Source: Nibricoccus sp. (lineage in GTDB: Bacteria > Verrucomicrobiota > Verrucomicrobiia > Opitutales > Opitutaceae). Taken from it: a DNA stretch of 64,000 bases. The stretch covers positions 1,472,001 through 1,536,000 of the forward strand of contig JASGHG010000001.1 in assembly GCA_047602425.1 (NCBI GenBank), read 5' to 3'. The position numbers and the translations under genes are program-made. This document shows, one piece after another, positions 1 through 60,325 of this stretch (positions are counted from its first letter, which is position 1; each line of letters begins with the position of its first letter). The notes under the pieces were generated by a model. It did no database searches, had not been told where the DNA came from, and was given only the letters and a program-made list of their open reading frames with translations.

Positions 1-2926
1 TCATGCCTTCGGGTTCGTCTTCGGCACGCCAGAGCAAACGCTTCCAATCGAGCGTGGCGATATCCGCCTGGAACTCGTGGGAGACTTCGTCGGTGAGGAA
101 TTGCGCGCGGGCGCGGCTCTCGGCGAGTTTCACTTCGCAACGGCTGAATTCCGCCTGCGAGGTCTCAGCTTCGGTGCGAAGGCCGTGCTGTGTGGCCTCG
201 ACCGCATTGATGTCGCGTTCGATGTCGACGAGTTCCTTGCGGATGATCTCCACCTGCTGTTGGGCGACAACGAGTGTTTCGGCAATCTGTGTGCCGCGGT
301 AGCGCTTCGAGTCGGTTTCGTGCTCGAGGTTGTTGATCTGCTCAGTCCATGCTTCGATTTCCTGCTGGCGTTGCACGAGAAGTTCGCCGAGCTGGCCGCG
401 GCGGCGTTGCATGTCGGCGATACCACGGTCGAGCACTTCGACTTTTTGGCGGTGTTCGGCCAGTTCGAGACGGGCCTGACCCAAGGTCTCACGCTTCTGG
501 TCGCGATCGGTGCGGACTTCGACGATGCGTGTCTCCAGTTGTTGGATACGCTCGCGGCCCTGCGTGACGGTGCTGTCGGCTTCGGCCAGTTGGGCCTGGG
601 CTTTTTCCCAGCGGTTGTGAGCCTCGTTGCGCGCGGCTTCAAGGGCACCGACTTCGGATTCCTTGCGGGTGAGACGCGTGGCGATCTCTTCGAGCGTGCG
701 CTGGGCGTTGCGCTGCTCGGCCTGCACGGCGGCGAGTTGCTGCGTGGCCGTGAGCACTTCGGCGCGCTTGGTTTCCACCAAGGCCTCGGCCTCGGCGATG
801 CGCGCGTTGAGCGCATCCATCAGCGCCTTTTGTTCGTCGTGCTGGCGTTGATCCTCGATGAGGGCCTTGCCGGTTTCGCGCAGGTCGATCTCGCGCTGCA
901 CGATGCTGTGCGAGGATTTTTTACCCGCGTGTCCGCCGGAAACGAGACCGCGACGGTCGACGACCTCGCCCTTGCGCGTGGCGACGGCGAGAAACGAGAA
1001 TGAAGAATTCGCTTTCCAAAATTCGAGAAACGCGCCGAGGTCTTCGGCGACGTAGCAACTCGCGAGCAGGCTGTAGACCGGGTGATTCGCGTCCGCGTGC
1101 GTGAGAATCGACGTCGCGGGTGCAAGAAACGCGGGCAAATCTTCCGCGCCGGCTTCCGTTTTCGGACCTCCGACTTCCGTGACCTGAAGGCAGACGCTGC
1201 CGATTTGTTCGTTTTCGAGTTGCGCGAGAATCTTGTGCGCCGTGCCGAGGTCGGCGACCGAGATCGCTTCCACCGCCGAACCAAGAAACGCCTCCAAGGT
1301 GCGGCCGAATTCCGGTTTCACCTCGATGCCCTGCGTGACCGGCAGCGGTTTCGCGCCGTTGAGCAAGCCGTCGAGGCGGCCCTGCAAAATGGCTTTCGCG
1401 CCTTCGCCGAAGCCTTCGAGTTTTTCCTGGAGCTGCTGGAGCAGTTTCAACCGCGCGGTGCGTTGCGCGACCTGGCGGTCGATTTCCTGCAGCTTGCGCT
1501 GACCGTCGCGGAACTCGCGCGTCATGTTGACGACGGATTGCTGCGCTTCGGACGACTCCTGATTGGCGCGGGATTTCGCGGTGAGCGCTTCTTCGACGCG
1601 AGCTTCGAATTCGGCGACGACTTGCGCGGCGGCGCTCTGCTGCTGGCGGATGCCTTCGATTTCCTGCAACAGCGAGTCGTGTTTGTGCACGCTCGTCTTC
1701 TGGTCGACCTCGTAGGCCGAGCAGTCGGTGCGCAAACGCGCGACCGTGCTTTCCAGCGTGAGGAGTTGGAATTTCGACTGCTGCAGCTCCTGTTCGAGCT
1801 TGCCGAGTTCGCCTTCGACGATGGCGAGTTCGCGGTTGCGGTTTTGGAACGAGGCGTCGGACGAGCCGAGCAGGCTCAACTGCATCTGTTTGTCCTGCGC
1901 GCCAGTGTCCACTTGCGCGGCAAGTTCGCGGAGTTGCATTTCGGTTTCGCCGAGATTCTGGCGCGAGGCCTCAAGGCGGTCCTGCAAACCGGCGCGTTTG
2001 ATCTGCGCGAGGTTGGCGGCGTTTTCCGATTGTTCTTTTTCCGAGCGAAGATCGAAGACGGCCTGCTGCGCGTCCTGCACGCGCTGATTGAGGCGGCTGC
2101 GCTCGGCCTTCTTTTCCTCCAGCGCGCGATTTTCCTCCTCGAAACGGGTTCGGCGCGTGTCGGCCTCGGCGCGAAGCACATTTACGCGGCCCTCAAGTTC
2201 GCCCAACGTCGCAGCGAGTTGCTGATAATGGAAACCGCTGTGCGCAAGACTCTGGTGCCGCAGGCGGTGGCTGAGACGCTTGTAGCGCATCGCCTTCGCG
2301 GCTTGACGGCGGAGCGAGCCGATCTGGCGTCCGACTTCGCCAATGACGTCGGCCACGCGCGCCAGATTCTGGTCGGTGAGCGTGAGCTTGGCCAGCGCCT
2401 CGCGGCGTTGGCTCTTGTAACGGGTTATACCCGCGGCCTCTTCGAAGACCGCACGGCGCTCCTCGGGCTTGGACGAAAGGATCTGATCAATCTGGCCCTG
2501 CGCCATGATCGAGTAGCTGGTCCGGCCGATGCCGGTGTCCATGAAAAGCTTGTGGATGTCCTTCAGGCGGCACGGCTGGCCGTTGAAAAAGTATTCGCTC
2601 TGTCCGTCGCGATACACGCGGCGCATGATCTCGACCTCGTGAAATTCCGTGCCGAGTTGTTTTTCGCAATCGGTCAGAAGCAGCGAGACCTCGCACATCT
2701 GCGCGGGTTTGCGCGTGTCGGCGCCCTCGAAGATGACGTCCTGCATCTTACCGCCGCGCAGAGCCTTGGCGCTCTGTTCGCCCAGCACCCAGCGGATGGA
2801 ATCCGCGATGTTGGACTTGCCGCAACCGTTGGGTCCCACCACGGCGGTGACGCCAGGCTCGAAACGAAGCGTGGAAGGATCAGCGAAGGATTTAAAACCG
2901 TGCAGCTTGAGCGCCTTGAGATACAT
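1..2926 (-). CDS. smc: Chromosome segregation protein SMC (5' part, runs off the left edge)
   Basis: Not in the ORF track because it has no stop in the window. Reverse complement from 2926 reads MYLKALKLHGFKSFADP..., followed by Walker A VVGPNGCGKSNIADSIRWVLGEQSAKALRG and a long coiled coil. Confidence 0.95.
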   Translation of the reverse strand, partial: MYLKALKLHGFKSFADPSTLRFEPGVTAVVGPNGCGKSNIADSIRWVLGEQSAKALRGGKMQDVIFEGADTRKPAQMCEVSLLLTDCEKQLGTEFHEVEIMRRVYRDGQSEYFFNGQPCRLKDIHKLFMDTGIGRTSYSIMAQGQIDQILSSKPEERRAVFEEAAGITRYKSQRREALAKLTLTDQNLARVADVIGEVGRQIGSLRRQAAKAMRYKRLSHRLRHQSLAHSGFHYQQLAATLGELEGRVNVLRAEADTRRTRFEEENRALEEKKAERSRLNQRVQDAQQAVFDLRSEKEQSENAANLAQIKRAGLQDRLEASRQNLGETEMQLRELAAQVDTGAQDKQMQLSLLGSSDASFQNRNRELAIVEGELGKLEQELQQSKFQLLTLESTVARLRTDCSAYEVDQKTSVHKHDSLLQEIEGIRQQQSAAAQVVAEFEARVEEALTAKSRANQESSEAQQSVVNMTREFRDGQRKLQEIDRQVAQRTARLKLLQQLQEKLEGFGEGAKAILQGRLDGLLNGAKPLPVTQGIEVKPEFGRTLEAFLGSAVEAISVADLGTAHKILAQLENEQIGSVCLQVTEVGGPKTEAGAEDLPAFLAPATSILTHADANHPVYSLLASCYVAEDLGAFLEFWKANSSFSFLAVATRKGEVVDRRGLVSGGHAGKKSSHSIVQREIDLRETGKALIEDQRQHDEQKALMDALNARIAEAEALVETKRAEVLTATQQLAAVQAEQRNAQRTLEEIATRLTRKESEVGALEAARNEAHNRWEKAQAQLAEADSTVTQGRERIQQLETRIVEVRTDRDQKRETLGQARLELAEHRQKVEVLDRGIADMQRRRGQLGELLVQRQQEIEAWTEQINNLEHETDSKRYRGTQIAETLVVAQQQVEIIRKELVDIERDINAVEATQHGLRTEAETSQAEFSRCEVKLAESRARAQFLTDEVSHEFQADIATLDWKRLLWRAEDEPEGM

Positions 2927-3091
2927 GAAAACCGGGGAGTTGAGCGGCGCGCTTTTGACACGGCAATTGGAAAAAATTTCCAGTTGTTCACAGGGTATTC
3001 GCAAAGGCGGGCCTGATATTGCACGCAAATGAAACGGCTTGTCGGAAAAGCGCCGGGCAACCAGCCTCCGTCAGAATATCCGTGCCCCTGC

Positions 3092-14195: not shown

Positions 14196-14297
14196 CCCTA
14201 TTCTTTCGGTAAAATTTAAACCGATCTATTTCACAGGAGAAAACTGAGCGAGCTGAGTAAAGATCCTCGGGGCAAGCCCCGAGGCATTGCCGAAATT

Positions 14298-14356
14298 GTA
14301 GGAGCGGCTTTACGCCGCGATTTTTCCGAACCATCGCGGGATAAACCCGCTCCTAC
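14298..14356. repeat. GTAG-type REP doublet nested in another palindromic element
   Basis: GTAGGAGCGGCTTTACGCCGCGA ... TCGCGGGATAAACCCGCTCCTAC, preceded by the CCTCGGGGCAAGCCCCGAGG hairpin at 14265-14284. Confidence 0.75.
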
Positions 14357-14670
14357 AACTCACCAAGCCGAAGCGAACTCCGGGGCATTTGGACCCACAG
14401 GGAGTCAAATTTCAAGGCCCCTCGTGCTGTGGTGAAATCTTCACGTTCACGAGATCCGAAATACTCTTCTTTAGCCTCCTCGGATTCTTCGCCAAAAGGA
14501 ACCTTTGCAGAATTTCCTCGAACGATGGTTAAAACCGACCAAGCTCATACGCACAAACTCCATGGCGAAAGTTTCCCTCAAAGTTTCCGACCAGCGTTGC
14601 CCTGGAACTCGTCATCGATCCTAGAAAACCGCTCCCCGATATTCACGAACTCGCGAAAACGCTCATGCGT

Positions 14671-15923: not shown

Positions 15924-16757
15924 ATGAAACCCCTGCTTGCCTTTTTCGCCCTGCTCGGAGCTCTCGGCCTGACCCGTGGCGAAACAATTGATCCCTACAC
16001 GAGCAAGCCGCATGTGGATTTCCACATTTTCGGTTCCGGTAAAACTCAGTTGCTCGTCGTCGGCGATTCCCGACTGCGGAATTCTTCGCAAGATTTTTGG
16101 AATTCCACTTTCGGATCCACTGGTTGGGGCGAATGCCTGGGCAAAGTGGAGGCATTGAAGTCATATCGGATCGTCAATTGCGGTATCGGCGGCACGAGCC
16201 TTCGTTCCTATATCAATCGCGGTTATTGGAATCGGGTGCTGGCGTTGGTGAAAACAGAAGACATCGTGATCTTCTATTTCGCGGGAAATGACCTTCGTCC
16301 AATCGAGGATCAGAAGCGAAGCTGCGGCGAACTGCACGGTCTCGGCGACAAAAGCACAACCATCTACAATCCCTATCTTAAGTGCGACGAAACGGTGCTG
16401 ACTTATGGCGCGTACTACAACCGGGTCATATCCGAAGTGAAAAAGGCGGGAGCGATTCCCTACATTTGCACGTATTTCTCAGGACAGTTGTGGAAAGACG
16501 GACAGCATCAGCCGGGACCTTCGCACATGGTCAACGCATGGATTCATCTCATCGCGACCGAAAATCAGGTGAAGCTCGTGGATTTGTATACATTGATGGA
16601 ACGGGAACTGGCCGTGCGCGGAGAAAAAAAGAGCGCGGAGCTCTTCGTAAAAGACGGTTTCCACACCAGCTCCAAAGGCGCCTTGCTGGTGGCCAACTTG
16701 ATCGGCGATATCGTCAGCAACAACCGCTTCACCGAACCAGTTCCTCCTCAACCCTGA
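15924..16757 (+). CDS. SGNH/GDSL esterase, rhamnogalacturonan acetylesterase-like
   Basis: Signal peptide, VGDS, GWGE, N.GIGG.S.RSY, F.GND, DGFHT...GA. Confidence 0.85.
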   Translation: MKPLLAFFALLGALGLTRGETIDPYTSKPHVDFHIFGSGKTQLLVVGDSRLRNSSQDFWNSTFGSTGWGECLGKVEALKSYRIVNCGIGGTSLRSYINRGYWNRVLALVKTEDIVIFYFAGNDLRPIEDQKRSCGELHGLGDKSTTIYNPYLKCDETVLTYGAYYNRVISEVKKAGAIPYICTYFSGQLWKDGQHQPGPSHMVNAWIHLIATENQVKLVDLYTLMERELAVRGEKKSAELFVKDGFHTSSKGALLVANLIGDIVSNNRFTEPVPPQP

Positions 16758-16973
16758 TTTCCACGGCTCAGCAAAGTTCGGCCTTCTTATCCCAAACTTT
16801 CAACGGCCGTCTCAGCTCCAATAGTTTGGTTGCCGTCGCTTACATCCATGAACCGGCGCGAGCCCAAAAGGATTTTTTTTGTCAGGAATCGCCCGCCCCT
16901 GTCGCGTTACCCGCACCTCCCTTCGTTGTGTCCGATTGAGCCCTTCCAGTCGCGAATGAAATACTTTGTGGCC

Positions 16974-17372
16974 GGTGTTTGAGAAAACGAGACCGGGTAT
17001 TAACGGCAGTCAGCCGGTGTTTATTCCTTCGAAAGCGGGCAAAAGTCTTTGGAAACTGGGTATTGATGCTTGGAATCAGGGTTTTGGTCTTTCGAAACGG
17101 AGTTTTAGTCTTTGGACGGAGGGTTTTGGTCCTTTGAACGAGGGTTTTGATCCTTCGAAGTCGGGTATTGATCTTTGTTGACCGGGTTTTGGTTGTTGGA
17201 AGCCGGGTAAAAGGAGTTGTTCGACGGGTTTTGATCTTTGGAAGCTGGGTTTTGGTCCTTGGAAAGCGGGTTTTGGTCTTTCGAAGACGGGTAAAAGTAA
17301 TTTTTCAGCGGGTTTCAGTTCTTGGAGACAGAGTTTTGATCGTTGCTGACGGATTTCCCGTCATCGGAGACC
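16974..17372. repeat. Degenerate tandem array, 21-nt period, ~18-19 units
   Basis: Units such as GGGTTTTGGTCTTTCGAAACG, GGGTTTTGATCCTTCGAAGTC and GGGTTTTGGTCCTTGGAAAGC start every 21 nt (16974, 16995 ... 17079 ...) with no indels. Confidence 0.85.
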
Positions 17373-17776
17373 GGAATGAACGCACCGAAACCAGACATCA
17401 GCGCTCAGGCACCGGCATTCACCACTAATCTGGAGCCAAGGAGCCCAAAACCGCCCGCCAAACGATCTGTGCCGCCAACGAACAGCCTTTCCCCTCGCCT
17501 TTTGCCCGAAATTTGTACCAATCAGGTCATACCTGACGCGCGGCGGTACAACGACGGCCCTTTCAGCAAAAGATTCAACCCGCCCGCCCTACCTAACATC
17601 CAGCAACTTTTAACTGCAGTTGAGCTTTCCGCGGAAAAAAAACACCCCGCAAAACATCAACCCAACCAATCCGCCCCTACCCTTGAAATACTTCCACAAA
17701 AATTCCCCCGCTTTCCGCCCTCCGGCAAAAGCTCAACTCAGTTGGTACGAATAACACTGTTCGGCAAAAAAAGAAT

Positions 17777-18175
17777 ATGGCGTGGCAAACGTATCCTAAT
17801 CGTTCTTTCGTTCCCGACGAAAATAGTGCGTACGTTGTTAGTGCCCGGGTGCGACGCACTATTGCCGTGCTTGAGTTAGTTCGCTCGTTCGTAGGTATAG
17901 GTCTAGTCATTTGCTTGATGTTTGTTTGCCTCATCGTGTACGTACTTTTCCGCCCTTCCGAAGTGTTTTGGTATGCCGCGTCGGCAGCAATCTTCGCTGT
18001 TCTTATTGGCCTCGTATCGCAGCTCCCGTTGTTGCAGAAAGCACCGCTTAAGTGTTCGCGATGCGGCGCTCGTATGTCGCGTGAGCTACATCCGATAGGC
18101 GGTGAAACCTCGGTGTTCTATGTGTGCCAGAATTGTCGGTGTTATGTTGACGTCGAGAGCACATCGACAAATTGA
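17777..18175 (+). CDS. Cassette ORF: two-TM membrane protein with a C-terminal zinc ribbon
   Basis: Two hydrophobic helices, then CSRC...CQNC. Visibly lower GC. Preceded by GTTCGGC (17759-17765) and followed by GCCGAAC (18190-18196). Confidence 0.75.
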   Translation: MAWQTYPNRSFVPDENSAYVVSARVRRTIAVLELVRSFVGIGLVICLMFVCLIVYVLFRPSEVFWYAASAAIFAVLIGLVSQLPLLQKAPLKCSRCGARMSRELHPIGGETSVFYVCQNCRCYVDVESTSTN

Positions 18176-18227
18176 AGTGACATGAATCAGCCGAACCAGC
18201 CGCTCCCCTTTAGGTAAAATCAAGGGG

Positions 18228-18590
18228 TAAGTTTGATTTTGCCGTCAGGGGGGAGAGGGGCGAGTCCGAGAATGGGCCTCCAGCTCGTCGGAGGACGAGC
18301 CCCGGGGGGCAGGATGTAGCAGGTGGTTTTGGTTACATGAGATGGATATGGTTTTGGCGCTTTAACCAGGAGCCCGGTCCTCCGCGACGATCCCCATGAG
18401 TTGGTCCAGCTTTTGAGGGCTGGCCCGGACGATACTTAAAGGGCGGTAAGACCGGGAGGCCCGCCGTCGGGGCTTTAAAACATACAGTTGAGCATCAGCG
18501 AGGCTGTGCGGAACGGCTGGTGGCCCTCAAGCGGCGGGTTTCCCGGAAAAGCAAAAGTTAATGTCGGCTAAAATAGATCAAGGAAGTGGT
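18228..18590 (-). ncRNA. Candidate IS1111-type bridge/seekRNA region
   Basis: ORF-free region downstream of the transposase, where IS1111 elements encode their guide RNA. RNA boundaries are not determined. Confidence 0.55.
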
Positions 18591-19856
18591 TTAGGCGGCG
18601 GAGCGGAAAACGCGCTTCGGGTCGAAGGGTTGGGGCGAGCGTTCAAGGCCGTGGAGCAGTTTGAGGAACTTGCGGGCGACCGCGGTCATGGCTTTGCCGC
18701 CGCACATGCCGGTGTCGCGTTTGGCGTGGTAGTATTGCCCGTAGAGTTGTCCGTGCACGACGCGTTTGAGGACGGCTTGGGCGAGGACGTGGCGCAGGCG
18801 GGCGCGGCCGCGTTTGGCTTGGCGGAGTTGGCCTTGCATGGTGCCGCTTTGGCGGGGCCGCAGGTTGAGCCCGCCGTAGCGCCAGAGTTGGCGCACGTGG
18901 GCAAAGTCCCGGAGCGGTCCGGTCTCGGCGAGGACACGGGCGAGCATGAAGGGGCTGATCAGGTCGGGATGGGCTTGCAGGCGGGTGGCGCCGCGGGCGC
19001 GCAGGCGTTCGACCAGGGCGATCATTTGCTGGCGGGTGTTGGTTCGGCGGGTGCGCAGCACGGTGAGTTCGGCAAAGAGGGCGCGCAGGTCCTCGGCGAG
19101 CAGGGCCAGCCAGTCGGGGTCGGAGTCGATCAGGGCGCAGCGCTGGGCGTCGGCGAAGAGTCGCTGGATGGTCTTTGGGCCAACGTGGTGGTTGCGCAGT
19201 TTGGCGGTGCAGCGTTCCAGGCCGTCGGCGAGGATCGCGGCGGCGTTCAGGCCGTAGAGTGCGATCGTGGCTTGGGCGGCGCGGCCTTCGAAGAGCCAGT
19301 CGTTTTTAAAGCTCAATTCGGGGAAGAGCGAGAGGAGCAGTTTATGAATCCTGTTTTTACAGCGGGTGGAGTCGCGTTCGAGCCGGTCGTAGCGGGCGTT
19401 GAGTTCGCGCAGGAGCAGCCACTCGCCTTGGAGGGGACGATCGGTCAGGGTTTTGTTCCATTTGGCCAATAGTAAAATCGTGCGGGGATCTTTGATGTCG
19501 CTTTTGCCGGTATCGTTGTTCTCGACCACTTGCATCTGGTGGACGGCTTCGCCGTTGACCAAGGCGGTGGCGCAGCCGAGTTGGCGGGCCGCGCGCAGCA
19601 GGCGCCGTTCGTATCCGCCGGTGGGTTCGCAGAGGATGCGCACGCCGCCAAGGCCGTGCTGGCGGGCGTGGGTGTTGAGTTGTTCCAGCCATGAGAGGAT
19701 GGCCTCATTGCGATTGGCGATATGGCCTTGGTGCGCCTGGGCCCCGAGTTCACCGTACCAGTCCAGTGCTTTTTGCCCAACGTCGACGGCGATATCCCAG
19801 CGAGTTTCCGGTTGCCCGGAGTGCGTTCTGCCATTAAGTGCTTTGTTCGTTATCAT
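18591..19856 (-). CDS. IS110 family DEDD transposase/recombinase
   Basis: AVDVG (D), CEPTGGY (E), KSDIKD (D..D) and C-terminal GLN...RQSG...KRGRARLR. Confidence 0.95.
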   Translation of the reverse strand: MITNKALNGRTHSGQPETRWDIAVDVGQKALDWYGELGAQAHQGHIANRNEAILSWLEQLNTHARQHGLGGVRILCEPTGGYERRLLRAARQLGCATALVNGEAVHQMQVVENNDTGKSDIKDPRTILLLAKWNKTLTDRPLQGEWLLLRELNARYDRLERDSTRCKNRIHKLLLSLFPELSFKNDWLFEGRAAQATIALYGLNAAAILADGLERCTAKLRNHHVGPKTIQRLFADAQRCALIDSDPDWLALLAEDLRALFAELTVLRTRRTNTRQQMIALVERLRARGATRLQAHPDLISPFMLARVLAETGPLRDFAHVRQLWRYGGLNLRPRQSGTMQGQLRQAKRGRARLRHVLAQAVLKRVVHGQLYGQYYHAKRDTGMCGGKAMTAVARKFLKLLHGLERSPQPFDPKRVFRSAA

Positions 19857-20042
19857 GGTTAGATTGCGGCTCCGGCTAAGGAGTGCCGGTTACGTGCTTG
19901 TCACCGTCTAGTCCGTGCCGGGGCCGCCCCTTATGTTACCTCATCCGCCTATTAGTAGCATAGAGCGCAATGCCATTGCTCACTCCTTTCTGTTTAGCCA
20001 CGTCGCTCATGGCGTGGCTCACCTCTGACGTTGGGCAAAGCA

Positions 20043-20585
20043 ATGCGACTGACGCTTATCTTCGTTTCGCTATGGCTCGCAGCTGTGTCAGCAGCGAAAG
20101 CGGGAGTGACGATGTCAGCCTATGCGATAACCACGGAGCACGCGGCCAGGATTCAAAACGATGAGGCTTTGCTTGACGCCTTAATTCAGGAGGGAAAAGG
20201 AGCCAAGCGTTCGGTAGATTTTGATAAGTCGTGGGATGGAATGCACTATCTCCTGACTGGCGTTGCGAAGCCCGACGGAAGCATTGGGTCGAAGGCGATT
20301 TTTGGAGGCTCTCCAGTGGGAAGCGATCTGGGTTATCCGAAGGCGCGTGTCCTAGCCCCTAAAGAGGTCCAAGAAATCGCAGCGATGCTGGAGAAACTAT
20401 CGTTCGCCACTTTGGCGAAGCACTACGATCCGAAGGAGATGCAGCGCCTGAAAATCTATCCTGAAATTTGGGAGACGAATCCGGTTCAGCTAAAGGACTA
20501 TCTGTCCTCCTACTACCGTCAGTTGGTAGCCTTTTACAAAGAAGCCGCACGCGCAGAAGCCTGTGTCGTGATTCGAATTATATGA
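20043..20585 (+). CDS. Cassette ORF: YfbM/DUF1877 family protein with a signal peptide
   Basis: DFDKSWDGMHYLLTG, DLGYP.AR.L.P.EV, YDP.EM....IYP.IW. Starts 6 nt after the attC core GTTGGGC. Confidence 0.85.
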   Translation: MRLTLIFVSLWLAAVSAAKAGVTMSAYAITTEHAARIQNDEALLDALIQEGKGAKRSVDFDKSWDGMHYLLTGVAKPDGSIGSKAIFGGSPVGSDLGYPKARVLAPKEVQEIAAMLEKLSFATLAKHYDPKEMQRLKIYPEIWETNPVQLKDYLSSYYRQLVAFYKEAARAEACVVIRII

Positions 20586-20595
20586 ATATGAAAGA

Positions 20596-20691
20596 GCCCA
20601 ATACACGCGCCACAGCCAACGCCTATGTCCGTCCCGCCTCCTGCGAGACAGGAAGCGCGCCAGCCATAGTCGTGGCTCACCTTAGCTAGGC
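20596..20691 (+). other. Second attC site (degenerate cores)
   Basis: GCCCAATACACGCGCCACAGCCAACGCCTATG...CATAGTCGTGGCTCACCTTAGCTAGGC shares CGTGGCTCACCT with attC1. The AAC and GTT cores each carry one change. Confidence 0.7.
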
Positions 20692-20698
20692 TAAAAAG

Positions 20699-20940
20699 GT
20701 GAAAAAAGCTGATTACGAAATTAACCTTCCAGACATGAACGCTTGCGCACTTGATCGCAGCCGTTGGAAGGCAGCGCGATCTAGGGAAGCGACGTTCGAA
20801 CCGTATTACGATTAGCGGTTCAATGAAGTTCGGTGTTTGTAGTGGATTCTTCAGTGCGCACCCTTTGTTCAGCTGTTTAGGTTTAACTACTGATTTATAC
20901 CGACCGTCACGGACAAGGAATCGGAGCCTGATGAAAGTGG
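20699..20940 (+). pseudogene. Probable decayed third cassette
   Basis: Low-GC stretch right after attC2. The GTG-started frame MKKADYEINLPD... stops after 38 codons. Confidence 0.35.
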
Positions 20941-21031
20941 TGTGACGGCGCCGGATGTTGCGCGGAGAATGCCGAGGGGGAGCGAGCCGGGAAAGCCGTA
21001 TCGCTTTTCTGCGTTTGAAGCAGAAAAATTG

Positions 21032-23554
21032 TTATACCGGAACCGGCGGCAAGGACCAGATTTGTTCGGCGTATTCGCGGATGGTGCGGTCGCTGGAGAA
21101 TTTGCCCATGCGGGCGGTGTTCAAAATCGCCTTCTTCGCCCACTCGGAGGACTTGCGGTACGTCGCGTCAACTTTTGCGTGACAGTCGACGTAGCTGCGG
21201 AAGTCGGCGAGGACCATAAACGGGTCGCCACCGCCAAGCAAACTCTGGTGCACGAGGCTGAAGGCGTTGTGTTCGTTCGGCGCGAAATAATTCGAGCCAA
21301 GCCAATCGAGCACAGTGCGGAGTTCCTCGTCCTTGTGGTAGAAATCCCACGGGTTGTAGCCCTTGGCGCGGAGTTTTTCGACTTCGTCGACTTCCATGCC
21401 GAAGATGAAGATGTTGTCGTCGCCGACCTCTTCCTTGATTTCGACGTTGGCGCCGTCGAGCGTGCCGATGGTGAGGGCGCCGTTGAGCGCGAGTTTCATG
21501 TTGCCGGTGCCGGAAGCTTCCTTGCCGGCGGTGGAGATTTGTTCGGAGAGATCGGCGGCGGGGATGATCCTCTCGGCTAGCGATACGCGATAGTTCGGGA
21601 GAAAGACGACCTTGAGTTTCCCCAGGATGCGGCCGTCGGAATTAATCTTGGCACCGATAAGGTTGATCGCACGGATAATATTTTTCGCGAGATCGTAGCC
21701 GGGGGCGGCCTTGGCGGCGAAAACGAAAACGCGCGGCACGATGTCGAGCGACGGATTCTGGAGCAGTCGGCGGTAGAGCGCGAGGATGTGAAGCAGGTTC
21801 AGGTGCTGGCGCTTGTACTCGTGGAGTCGCTTGATCTGCACATCGAAAAGCGCATCGGGCGAAACATCGACGCCGCATTCGGTGCGAATGACGTCGGCGA
21901 GATCGACTTTGTTGGCGCGTTTGACGGCCATGAATTCCTTCTGAAACGCGGCGTTGCCCGCGAATTTTTCGAGTTCGCGCAGACGGTCGAGGTCGCTGGC
22001 CCAATCGGTGTGGCCGAGGGTGTCGGTGAGGAGTTTCGAGAGACGCGGGTTGCAAGCGAGCAGCCAGCGGCGCGGTGTGATGCCGTTGGTTTTGTTCTGG
22101 AATTTGCCCGGATAAAGCGCGTCGAACTCAGGGAAGAGCAGTTTCTTCAACAAATCGGTGTGCAGCGCGGCGACGCCATTGACGGCGTGCGAACCGACGA
22201 CGGAGAGGTTGGCCATGCGCACGGATTTTTCGCCGTGTTCGTCGATGAGCGAGCAGGCGCGTTTCTTATTGTCGTCGCCCGGCCACTTGCGTTCGACCGT
22301 TTGCATGAGGCGGCTGTTGATCTCGAAAATAATCTGCAGGTGCCGGGGCAATACACGATTGAAGAGCGGCACGCCCCAGCGTTCGAGCGCTTCTGGGAGC
22401 AGCGTGTGGTTCGTGTAGCCGAAGGTCTGGGTGACGATTTCCCACGCACGGTCCCACGGCATGTTTTCCTCGTCGAGGAGGATGCGCATGAGTTCGGGCA
22501 CGGCGACGGCGGGATGCGTGTCGTTGAGCTGGATGGCGACTTTGTCATGGAAATTTCCCCACGTGTTGATGTTGCCCGCGTGGCGGACGTGACGGCGAAT
22601 GATGTCGCGGAGCGAGCACGCGACGAAGAAATACTGCTGCACGAGGCGCAGTTCCTTGCCGTTCTCGGTCTTGTCGTTCGGATAAAGTACCTTTGAAATG
22701 GTTTCGCCCAGGGCTTTTTCGCGGACGGCCTCCATGTAGCCGCCGGCGTTGAAAGCCTGAAGGTCAAATTCGGCGGTCGAACGCGAGCGCCAGAGGCGGA
22801 GGAGGTTGACGGTCTTGGTGCCGTAGCCCGCGATCGGAATATCGTAGGGTACGCCGAGAATGGTTCGGGTGTTGACCCATTTTGGGCGGCTGTTGCCGTG
22901 GTCGTCGAAGACGTTTTCCACCTGACCATAGACCTGCACCACCTGCGCATATTCGGGACGCATGACTTCCCACGGCGTGCCGAAAATCATCCAGCTGTCG
23001 GGATGCTCGATCTGGTGTCCGTTAACGAATTCCTGTTTGAAAAGGCCGAACTCGTAGTGAATGCCGTAGCCAATCGCGGGATAATCCTGCGAGGCGAGCG
23101 AATCGAGGAAACACGCGGCAAGCCGGCCAAGACCGCCGTTGCCGAGGCCCATGTCGACCTCCTGCTCGCGAACCTTTTCGTAATCCACACCGAGTTCCTT
23201 GAGGGCGCCGGCGGCGGCTTCGACGAGACCGGTGTTGTAGAGATTATTTTCCATCAACCGGCCCATGAGGTACTCGAGCGAAAGATAGTAGAGGCGGCGG
23301 ACATTTTGGTCGTTGTGAACGCCCTGAGTGACGATCAGGCGTGCGAGAACATGTTCGCGCACAGCGAGAGCGGTCGAGATCCACCAATCGCGTGGACCGG
23401 CCGTATGCGTGTCACGCGCCAGTGTGTAAGTAAGATGGCGCAAAATGGATTGTTTGAACTTCGTATTATCGGCACCGAGCCCGATCGCACCAGCGGCGCC
23501 GGACGGAGTGGAAGTGCGGGTCGGACTTTTCTTCGTTTTGTTGGAAGTCGCCAT
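21032..23554 (-). CDS. glgP: Glycogen/starch phosphorylase
   Basis: [35 protein letters not shown] and PLP motif [14 protein letters not shown]. Confidence 0.97.
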
Positions 23555-25485: not shown

Positions 25486-25560
25486 GAACGTTCGCCATCA
25501 TCATCATTCCACGCACAGACGGAAGCGTGGAATTTTCAGTCGATCAACAAACCCTTTCGC

Positions 25561-25709
25561 CAAAGAGAACACAGGGCTCGGACACAGAGACGGCGGGAGG
25601 CCAAAACGTAGGTTCATATCATTCCCGCCGGCGACGCATGACGAATAGGCACAAAGCAAAGATTCAACTCTCTGTGACGTCTGTGTCCGAGCTCCGCGTC
25701 CTCTGTGGC
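25561..25709 (-). repeat. ~150 bp CACAGAG-type inverted-repeat element (copy A)
   Basis: Reverse complement aligns with 57175-57317. Includes an exact 19-mer (25591-25609 vs 57269-57287). Confidence 0.85.
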
Positions 25710-32902: not shown

Positions 32903-32938
32903 CCGCCGCGTTCACTCCGCCGCACCCTCACAACACGC

Positions 32939-33048
32939 TTGTCATCCAATAAATGACAAACCGCCAAAATCCCTCCCCCTAAAAATACCTCCGAGTCTTC
33001 TCATAGCGCAATGCCCCCAAACCAGTTTGTCATCTAATGGATGACAAA
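32939..33048. repeat. Pair of TGTCAT-N7-ATGACA palindromes (locus 1)
   Basis: TTGTCATCCAATAAATGACAA (32939-32959) and TTTGTCATCTAATGGATGACAAA (33026-33048). Confidence 0.8.
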
Positions 33049-33226
33049 ATTGCTGGGCAGGTAGGCGCTCGCGCACTACATTGCGTGCACTTCGGGAGAG
33101 CTTATGCTGCCGAGCGGAACGGGGCTACAAATTTTCCATCTCAGTTTTGCTGACCCGTCGACTACCTTCACCGTCACCCACCCCTCGCACCATGCGTCTC
33201 TTTTGCTGTCCAACTCGCTACCTCCA

Positions 33227-36123: not shown

Positions 36124-36210
36124 GCCTGTGCTAAACCAGGCGTTGCAGCCAAAACGAATGCCCGAAGCTTCCACCGTCCCGCCTGCCCGCGCACGAGGAT
36201 TGTCAGGTGG

Positions 36211-36504
36211 TCTTTTCGCTTCTGCGCCGCCACCCTTCGGCCCGTAGCAAAGTCTTTTCGGTTCTTCGCGTGAACCGTTCGCTGCGTAGCTATTCCCATT
36301 CGCCTGTTCGCTGACTCCATTCGGTTCACAGCCATCTCCGTTTGCTTCGTAGACGGGACTTTTCGCTTCATAGCGCATAGTTTTCGGCCGCTAGCGGAAC
36401 CCGTTCGGTTCGTAACCGGAACTTTTCGGCTTATAGCTGACACTTTTCGGTCCATAGCTAGAACTTTTCGCTTCATAGCTAAGACTTTCCGGTTGATAGC
36501 TAAA
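36211..36504. repeat. Degenerate tandem array, 21-nt period, 14 units
   Basis: Units ACTTTTCGGCTTATAGCTGAC, ACTTTTCGGTCCATAGCTAGA, ACTTTTCGCTTCATAGCTAAG and others, in exact register from 36211. Confidence 0.85.
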
Positions 36505-40902: not shown

Positions 40903-41070
40903 AGCACATACGATAAAACTGTAGCCGTAAATCGGTATTACAAACCGAGCTGTCTTCGTAGGGGCGCAGTCTTGCTGCGCCCTTTCTGTGGCAAAGCCAA
41001 ACCGGGCGCAGCAAGACTGCGCCCCTACAGCCGAAGTTGTGCGGTTATGACATTTTTAAAAATGCTCTAG
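40900..41070. repeat. MITE-like element (TAGAGCA...TGCTCTA ends) containing a GTAG REP doublet
   Basis: Perfect IR GTAGGGGCGCAGTCTTGCTGCGCCC / GGGCGCAGCAAGACTGCGCCCCTAC (40958-41028) inside the outer IR. Confidence 0.7.
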
Positions 41071-57174: not shown

Positions 57175-57317
57175 GCCACAGAGGGCACAGAGCTCGGACA
57201 CAGAGTTCACAGAGAATCCAAAGAAAGCACATATCGAGTGACAGAAGCGGCCGGCAAGATACACGCCCACGTTTTGGCCTCCCGCCGCCTCTGTGTCCGA
57301 GCTCTGTGTCCTCTGTG
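57175..57317 (+). repeat. ~145 bp CACAGAG-type inverted-repeat element (copy B)
   Basis: CACAGAGGGCACAGAGCTCGGACACAGAG ... CTCTGTGTCCGAGCTCTGTGTCCTCTGTG. Confidence 0.85.
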
Positions 57318-60213: not shown

Positions 60214-60325
60214 AAAGACTGAAAGGCTGAAGGGCTGAAAGGCTGAAATGGTTGCGGCTAGCCTAGCTATGACCACCAGCTGCCGGCTTCGTTCAGGCTT
60301 TCAGTCATTCGTTCTTTCAGTCTTT
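60214..60325. repeat. Intergenic inverted repeat built from CTGAAAGG-like 8-mers
   Basis: AAAGACTGAAAG (60214-60225) and CTTTCAGTCTTT (60314-60325), each with tandem 8-nt subunits. Confidence 0.7.

Follow-up and report, generated by a model that had tools for sequence, protein, structure and literature searches.

Insertion sequences of the IS1111 group that reside in integron attC sites, namely ISKpn4, ISPst6, ISPa21 and ISPa25, were reportedly described by Tetu and Holmes in 2008 and by Post and Hall in 2009. In the portion of PMC11187229 used here, this group is characterized by a DEDD recombinase of the IS110 superfamily, a guide RNA (seekRNA) in the 3' region and insertion with no target duplication, and the seekRNA presents its top-strand match before its bottom-strand match. 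The same source defines IS1111 by sub-terminal repeats of 11-13 bp and a transposase of 330-350 aa; transposases of the IS110 subgroup are 395-455 aa, and some IS110-type elements likewise have a 3' region. The part of PMC3001079 on attC places the IS1111 elements near the 5' end of the site and antisense to the array. Group IIC-attC introns parasitize attC in the same manner, near its 5' end and antisense, but according to that part they are reverse-splicing retroelements that enter at R'' and not DNA recombinases. In the literature that we searched, a scope that excludes the primary IS1111-attC papers and most subscription journals, attC targeting by IS110-type elements is attributed to the IS1111 group only. 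The RNA-guided mechanism itself, like the use of attC as a target by IS1111, has been published before.

Here we describe an element within a 64,000-nucleotide stretch of Nibricoccus sp. DNA (contig JASGHG010000001.1, positions 1,472,001 to 1,536,000), referred to as the window. We assign a probability of about 0.8 to its reading as an intact insertion sequence of the IS110 family that has been found at one attC base only, is likely guided by a bridge RNA and belongs to a lineage separate from the IS1111-attC elements. The features of the locus are collected in Table 1.

Table 1. Features at the insertion locus, in window coordinates
Feature	Position	Strand	Basis or remark
attI-like site at the head of an integrase-less array of two cassettes	17728..17770	+	86% identity over 43 bp, E 1.4e-6
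Cassette 1 gene, 132 aa, function unassigned	17777..18175	+	ORF; no Pfam/NCBIfam match
attC 5' part: R'' (18190-18196), 5-nt spacer, first three L'' bases	18190..18204	+	
IS110-family element	18205..19961	-	1,757 bp, one of 9 copies
Element right end: 4-bp sub-terminal CCTA and -35-like TTGATT at 18218-18223	18205..18223	-	-35 kept in 44/56 elements
Predicted bridge RNA, target-binding then donor-binding loop	18352..18553	-	covariance model match
Putative guide 4: right end of element and shared base	18390..18395	-	
Putative guide 3: pairs with element left end	18429..18436	-	
Putative guide 2: 4 nt of L'' and shared base, then 2-nt handshake-like extension identical to the first bases of the element	18481..18487	-	
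Putative guide 1, of 10 nt: one G-T wobble in its pairing with the attC spacer, the edge of R'' and the shared base	18512..18521	-	
DEDD recombinase, 421 aa, intact	18591..19856	-	D25, E77, D120, D123; S337 in SG motif
Element left end: shared base, -10-like TACTAA with TG, sub-terminal TAGG	19948..19961	-	sequence
attC 3' part: remaining L'', variable stem, L' (20017-20023), R' (20030-20036)	19962..20036	+	
Cassette 2 gene, DUF1877	20043..20585	+	PF08974, E 5e-37
Decayed second attC closing cassette 2	20596..20692	+	read from sequence; below matrix cut-off

Excision of the element joins 18190-18204 to 19962-20036 and restores a 90-bp attC. The two junctions have a single base in common (T on the plus strand, A on the transposase strand) and there is no target duplication, which bears out the initial annotation of a precise attC insertion at 18205-19961, in reverse orientation, with one shared T. 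That annotation had proposed the flanks of other copies as a check, and these agree with it. The genome carries nine near-identical copies (protein identity 99.8-100%) of 1,756-1,759 bp, with one exception of 3,064 bp that is interrupted by an IS3-family element. All nine have identical ends, interrupt an attC behind the third base of its L'' box and carry the transposase antisense to the cassettes. A specific target, a single orientation and the absence of a true target duplication, seen in 9/9 copies, are features of the IS110 superfamily.

The interrupting IS3-family element (C1:290759-292065, with a 3-bp duplication) lies inside the predicted donor guide of its host copy (L018), which it has likely immobilized; two further identical IS3 copies are found at C1:329777 and 5019981. 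A second, unrelated IS110-family element is present in single copy (L016/L017; C1:5137663-5138776) and encodes a 370-aa protein followed by a 3' non-coding region. It is placed in an intI array, between two copies of the 421-aa element.

The names R'', L'', L' and R' are assigned to the attC segments according to the usage of the integron literature. In the rejoined site, these four boxes with pairing arms come after an ORF, and the genome encodes two integron integrases that exceed the TIGR02249 cut-off. On a matrix of two arms, built solely from 23 intact attCs of this genome, it scored 36.4 and 31.2 bits, inside the range of intact attCs. The minimum-energy fold of its bottom strand (-12.3 kcal/mol) is non-canonical, and the canonical hairpin (-11.4 kcal/mol) has an estimated probability of 0.003, the 23 intact sites spanning 0.0001-0.96. 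Of the two properties on which the initial annotation had staked its attC call, scoring held within the family range and folding proved weak. The full set of 44 attCs consists of 39 found with the two-arm matrix and five strong left arms (four of them IS-split), with four weaker lone arms excluded; it supersedes an earlier loose pattern that gave 447 matches, mostly chance.

At the window locus, an attI-like site is followed by an array of two cassettes; the intI genes are about 0.57 and 1.5 Mb distant, and no intI remnant lies within the window. The attI-like site was matched to the one that precedes the first cassette at the intI near C1:919184. This start is common to three integrase-less arrays and one intI array (17728-17770; C1:302942, 920639 and 4129959). 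At the second attC (20596..20692), contigs of run X1 align and then run on into an end that is R'-like and intact. A candidate promoter directed outward, to cassette 2, was rejected, as its single 9/12 match is at chance level. In the second array, a group II intron with a reverse transcriptase (C1:924716-926660), counted here among the group IIC-attC introns, splits the R'' of an attC.

Occupied and free attCs differ in their fit to the predicted guides. All nine occupied sites, four of them counted by hand, are within one mismatch of the guide-spelled 14-nt site, compared with 6/35 free attCs (Fisher p 7e-6), a comparison in which a 90-94-bp attC class of weak folders is a confounder and two occupied sites have a cassette in common. 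Five of the nine have the commoner spacer, and four of these mismatch guide 1 once. The attC of the window mismatches guide 2 at one base. With 9 of 44 attCs split in this genome, the element likely limits the cassettes that the integrase can still move.

The predicted RNA lies in the 386-nt region 3' of the recombinase gene, which can be aligned across the clade of relatives and modeled as three helices around two internal loops. The 20 pairs of this model are paired in 95.6% of cases compared with 68.3% after shuffling, and 18 are changed on both sides, in an alignment that is itself the source of the structure. As a single sequence, the RNA of the window folds no better than its shuffles (z -1.2), and Rfam gave zero matches to 16500-21500. 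A covariance model built from 25 sequences matches 18352-18553 and 9/11 further clade loci, and none of 18 outside IS110/IS1111 loci. The loop segments match, in order, the spacer side of attC, the L'' side, the left end of the element and its right end.

To compare guides with flanks, we scored 34 distinct sets against their own and permuted flanks, giving 5.99 versus 4.42, 6.29 versus 5.11, 5.41 versus 4.41 and 4.41 versus 3.75. The fit to own flanks was reached by none of 1,500-3,000 permutations, among relatives that are not independent of one another. By permutation, the target guides also fit their own flanks inside a single 14-member subgroup. Additionally, in the 31/56 elements whose guide match is unique, the dinucleotide that follows guide 2 agrees with the first bases of the element at 60/62 positions and with the target at 10/62, a pattern expected of the handshake guides of IS621 as given in part of PMC13626964. 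One copy in this genome (C1:5135361) has an altered guide-1 base that fits its own target. In another (C1:5131600, L015), a single change in guide 4 weakens the match to the right end of the element. Guides for both target and donor in a non-coding region, here read computationally, are a further feature of the IS110 superfamily, and the element is likely an RNA-guided recombinase whose guides read the attC of its host.

The predicted fold of the recombinase (pLDDT 85.7) resembles that of IS621/ISCro4 (E 1.5e-12). In the parts of PMC11208160 and PMC13626964 used here, and in PDB 8wt6-9 and 9t56, those systems also have two internal loops, four guides, a handshake-like dinucleotide that favors the post-exchange product and a very short sub-terminal repeat, as found here. 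Their layout of a long guide followed by a short guide and handshake is that of the present RNA when read on the cassette strand. In contrast to IS621/ISCro4, our RNA is downstream of the gene rather than upstream and is inverted relative to it, the core is one base and not two, the protein has about 95 extra residues at 18-19% identity, and the target is attC rather than REP.

By sequence criteria, the element is a member of the IS110 superfamily. The recombinase matches PF01548 and PF02371 above cut-off, with an N-terminal DEDD RuvC-like domain and a C-terminal Tnp domain bearing the SG motif, and its catalytic positions lie in conserved alignment columns; its NF033542 score is 111 bits, under the cut-off of 140. 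The gene is flanked by 105 nt of non-coding sequence upstream in addition to the 386 nt downstream. The initial annotation had called the element IS1111-like, with sub-terminal inverted repeats. This label fails because the protein is 421 aa, the 11-13-bp sub-terminal repeats are missing and nesting within IS1111 is rejected; the motifs of the catalytic region differ as well. Full-length proteins of the clade measure 395-459 aa (median 425, n=123). No perfect sub-terminal repeat of 8 bp or more is present at the element ends, whereas the ISEc11 and IS5075 controls gave perfect repeats of 12 bp, and there is no near-perfect 11-13-bp pair at the IS1111 distances of 7 (or 6) bp from one end and 3 bp from the other. 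The ends contain a TAGG/CCTA pair of 4 bp and, at offsets 20/7, an imperfect repeat of 16 columns, equalled in 1/2000 shuffles and altered in 3/9 copies. This repeat and a self-hairpin at the right end were dropped as candidate sub-terminal repeats since they are not conserved. The IS1111-like traits that the element does share are its long downstream non-coding region and the top-strand guide placed first, as read on the transposase strand.

The recombinase aligns with IS1111-type proteins over short C-terminal stretches alone (E 0.014 at best). Its best BLAST matches are long IS110-group transposases of Bacillota and Alphaproteobacteria (25-30% identity), which are similar in length and motifs; these form separate, well-supported clades, however, and their flanks fail our RNA model. 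In the tree, the clade and IS1111 are set apart, each with support of 100/100. Four placements of the clade nested in IS1111 were rejected (p-AU <=1.7e-6), while a sister position stays acceptable (p-AU 0.09 and 0.11). The careful trees were calculated under LG+G4 with 8 clade members, a mixture model being used for the quick tree alone, and seven other IS1111-type proteins stand in for ISKpn4, ISPst6, ISPa21 and ISPa25. In the part of the PMC11208160 table examined, those four share a single cluster whose motifs are typical of IS1111, and sequences of ISKpn4 and ISPa25 from the PMC11187229 supplement, compared by eye, carry the standard IS1111 motifs that are missing in this clade. None of six clade motifs is present in the portion of the ISfinder-derived file of PMC11187229 that we searched. 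By eye, at least two rows in the consulted part of the PMC11208160 tree table look like this clade, and they are without an ISfinder name. The clade is apparently an unnamed IS110 lineage, for which no ISfinder member was found.

Homologues with 40-81% identity numbered 195 at E 1e-10 among the 8,000 candidates scored, the named ones being verrucomicrobial. Scans for relatives returned 75 loci from genomes and 80 from metagenomes; the element itself was found in 1/100 relatives and 2/400 genomes of the phylum, sets in which many assemblies are fragmented. From 104 distinct 3' regions, 29 were without a callable left end and 19 without a right end, leaving 56 with both. The shared base is A in 55 of these 56. 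The GTT of an attC-type R'' is found at +8..+10 in 48/56 elements, and in 43/51 outside this genome, against a background of 1.6%. The opposite attC arm is present at 12 of 14 pairs in 14/51 relatives (shuffles 1.3%) and at 10 of 14 pairs in 25/51 (shuffles 17%). These counts lean upward, because right-end motifs were hand-listed after the flanks had been viewed and the relatives are not independent.

Hosts with several copies give independent confirmation of the element ends. Host G042 has 2/2 right ends at the attC position with 14 intact attCs nearby, and the position recurs at 7/8 loci in Opitutales MAGs and at 7/7 loci with ends in Geopsychrobacteraceae MAGs. An integron integrase is present at three loci of relatives (L021, L048 and L067). 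Among the named hosts with the attC signature are Thermodesulfobacteriota (8), Verrucomicrobiota (2), and Nitrospirota, Myxococcota and one archaeal bin (1 each), where assignments from single MAGs may reflect binning errors. The initial annotation, which proposed an RNA-guided recombinase programmed against a verrucomicrobial attC family, fits in that the guides appear to read the host attC but was too narrow in its range, as Desulfobacterota, Nitrospirota and other MAGs are included. Hosts in PVC, Desulfobacterota, Nitrospirota and other groups, as well as a clear second, donor-binding loop in the RNA, also set this clade apart from the IS1111-attC group. Relatives that lack an attC signature in their flanks include L119, L150 and L034; L119 and L150 lie in non-attC DNA. 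The guide of L119 fits its own non-attC target at 8/8 positions, likely a case of natural retargeting. L034 has its RNA region in two copies.

Three other explanations bear on these data. Targeting of attC could go back to an ancestor common to this element and the IS1111-attC group, the element being a divergent member or a sister of that group in which the variable region later lengthened and the repeats were lost. The long 3' non-coding region and guide order, both IS1111-type in the part of PMC11187229 consulted, agree with such descent, as do the attC end and antisense orientation shared with ISPa21 and ISPst6 (PMC3001079, in part) and the acceptable sister position. Yet the protein length, the missing repeats, the by-eye motif differences from ISKpn4 and ISPa25 and the four rejected nested placements all oppose it, and the best BLAST matches lie elsewhere, with no IS1111 reference below E 0.01. 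Moreover, most IS1111 members use other targets, so that shared ancestry of attC targeting needs many losses. We regard inherited targeting as unlikely, and independent acquisition of attC targeting by a new lineage, with a known mechanism and a known type of target, as likely on the present comparisons.

The protein might instead recognize the folded single-stranded attC hairpin near its extra-helical L'' base, leaving the RNA matches secondary. Although the insertion point is beside that base in all hosts, and the guide matches are short and tolerate mismatches, guides vary with the flanks even inside one subgroup, the occupied sites here are mostly the weakest folders, and the non-attC target of L119 agrees fully with its guide. 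Hairpin recognition as the main cue is highly improbable. Most improbable of all is that the majority of the nine copies arose by duplication or recombination of one IS-bearing cassette junction and not by separate insertions. Copies C1:293183 and C1:922559 are indeed followed by one and the same attC part and cassette (398 bp at 100% identity), but the other seven differ on both flanks and occupy five separate loci, the nine copies have eight distinct downstream flanks, and relatives in other genomes sit at the same attC position. Duplication is therefore largely refuted, and we retain RNA-guided insertion at attC by a separate IS110 lineage.

By analogy with IS621 and ISEc11, the element would leave, rarely, as a circle whose joined ends would make a promoter driving recombinase and RNA. 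A promoter-like motif at the reconstructed circle junction, with a TTGA-type -35 located 17-18 nt from a -10-like hexamer, is kept in 44/56 elements. The plausible junction promoter of the initial annotation is present in sequence as described; the -10 of the window is weak, with a 3/6 match. Neither the circle nor the empty-site joint was seen in contigs X1/X2, which cover parts of the element and are no evidence either way. The first RNA loop may then open the attC duplex and pair with both of its strands while the second loop would hold the circle junction, and strand exchange would occur at the shared base. The dinucleotide that follows guide 2 would pair with the element end only after exchange, which would favor insertion. 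By splitting L'', an insertion, though it lands between genes, is predicted to break the attC hairpin and fix neighboring cassettes; passages of PMC11616780 describe the experimental support for effects of this kind as limited.

A wider reading, to which we give somewhat better than even odds, is that this deep IS110 lineage reached attC targeting independently and is a multi-phylum integron specialist, its guides rewritten for each host attC family and its crossover fixed at one L'' base, and that its copies freeze cassettes and act as integrase-independent joints that move them between arrays. If so, RNA-guided recombinases have taken up attC as a landing pad on more than one occasion, in addition to its use by group II introns. 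The clade also offers a natural guide-target library, with 34 distinct sets, protein identities down to 37% and a one-base core, in which the tolerance of the guides and the rules of the handshake may be read.

In two arrays (C1:292292-293182 and 924318-927154), an identical attC part and two cassettes follow IS copies. The arrays differ upstream, and their IS copies are alike near the shared end but not deeper inside, the pattern that a crossover within the IS would leave; this single case suggests exchange between IS copies. Elsewhere in the window, degenerate 21-bp tandem units are located just upstream of the attI-like site (16983-17344), with a similar array at about 36210-36461. Lastly, REP-like intergenic inverted-repeat pairs are found at 14296-14358, 25559-25709, 32924-33062, 40958-41028, 57175-57317 and 60214-60325.
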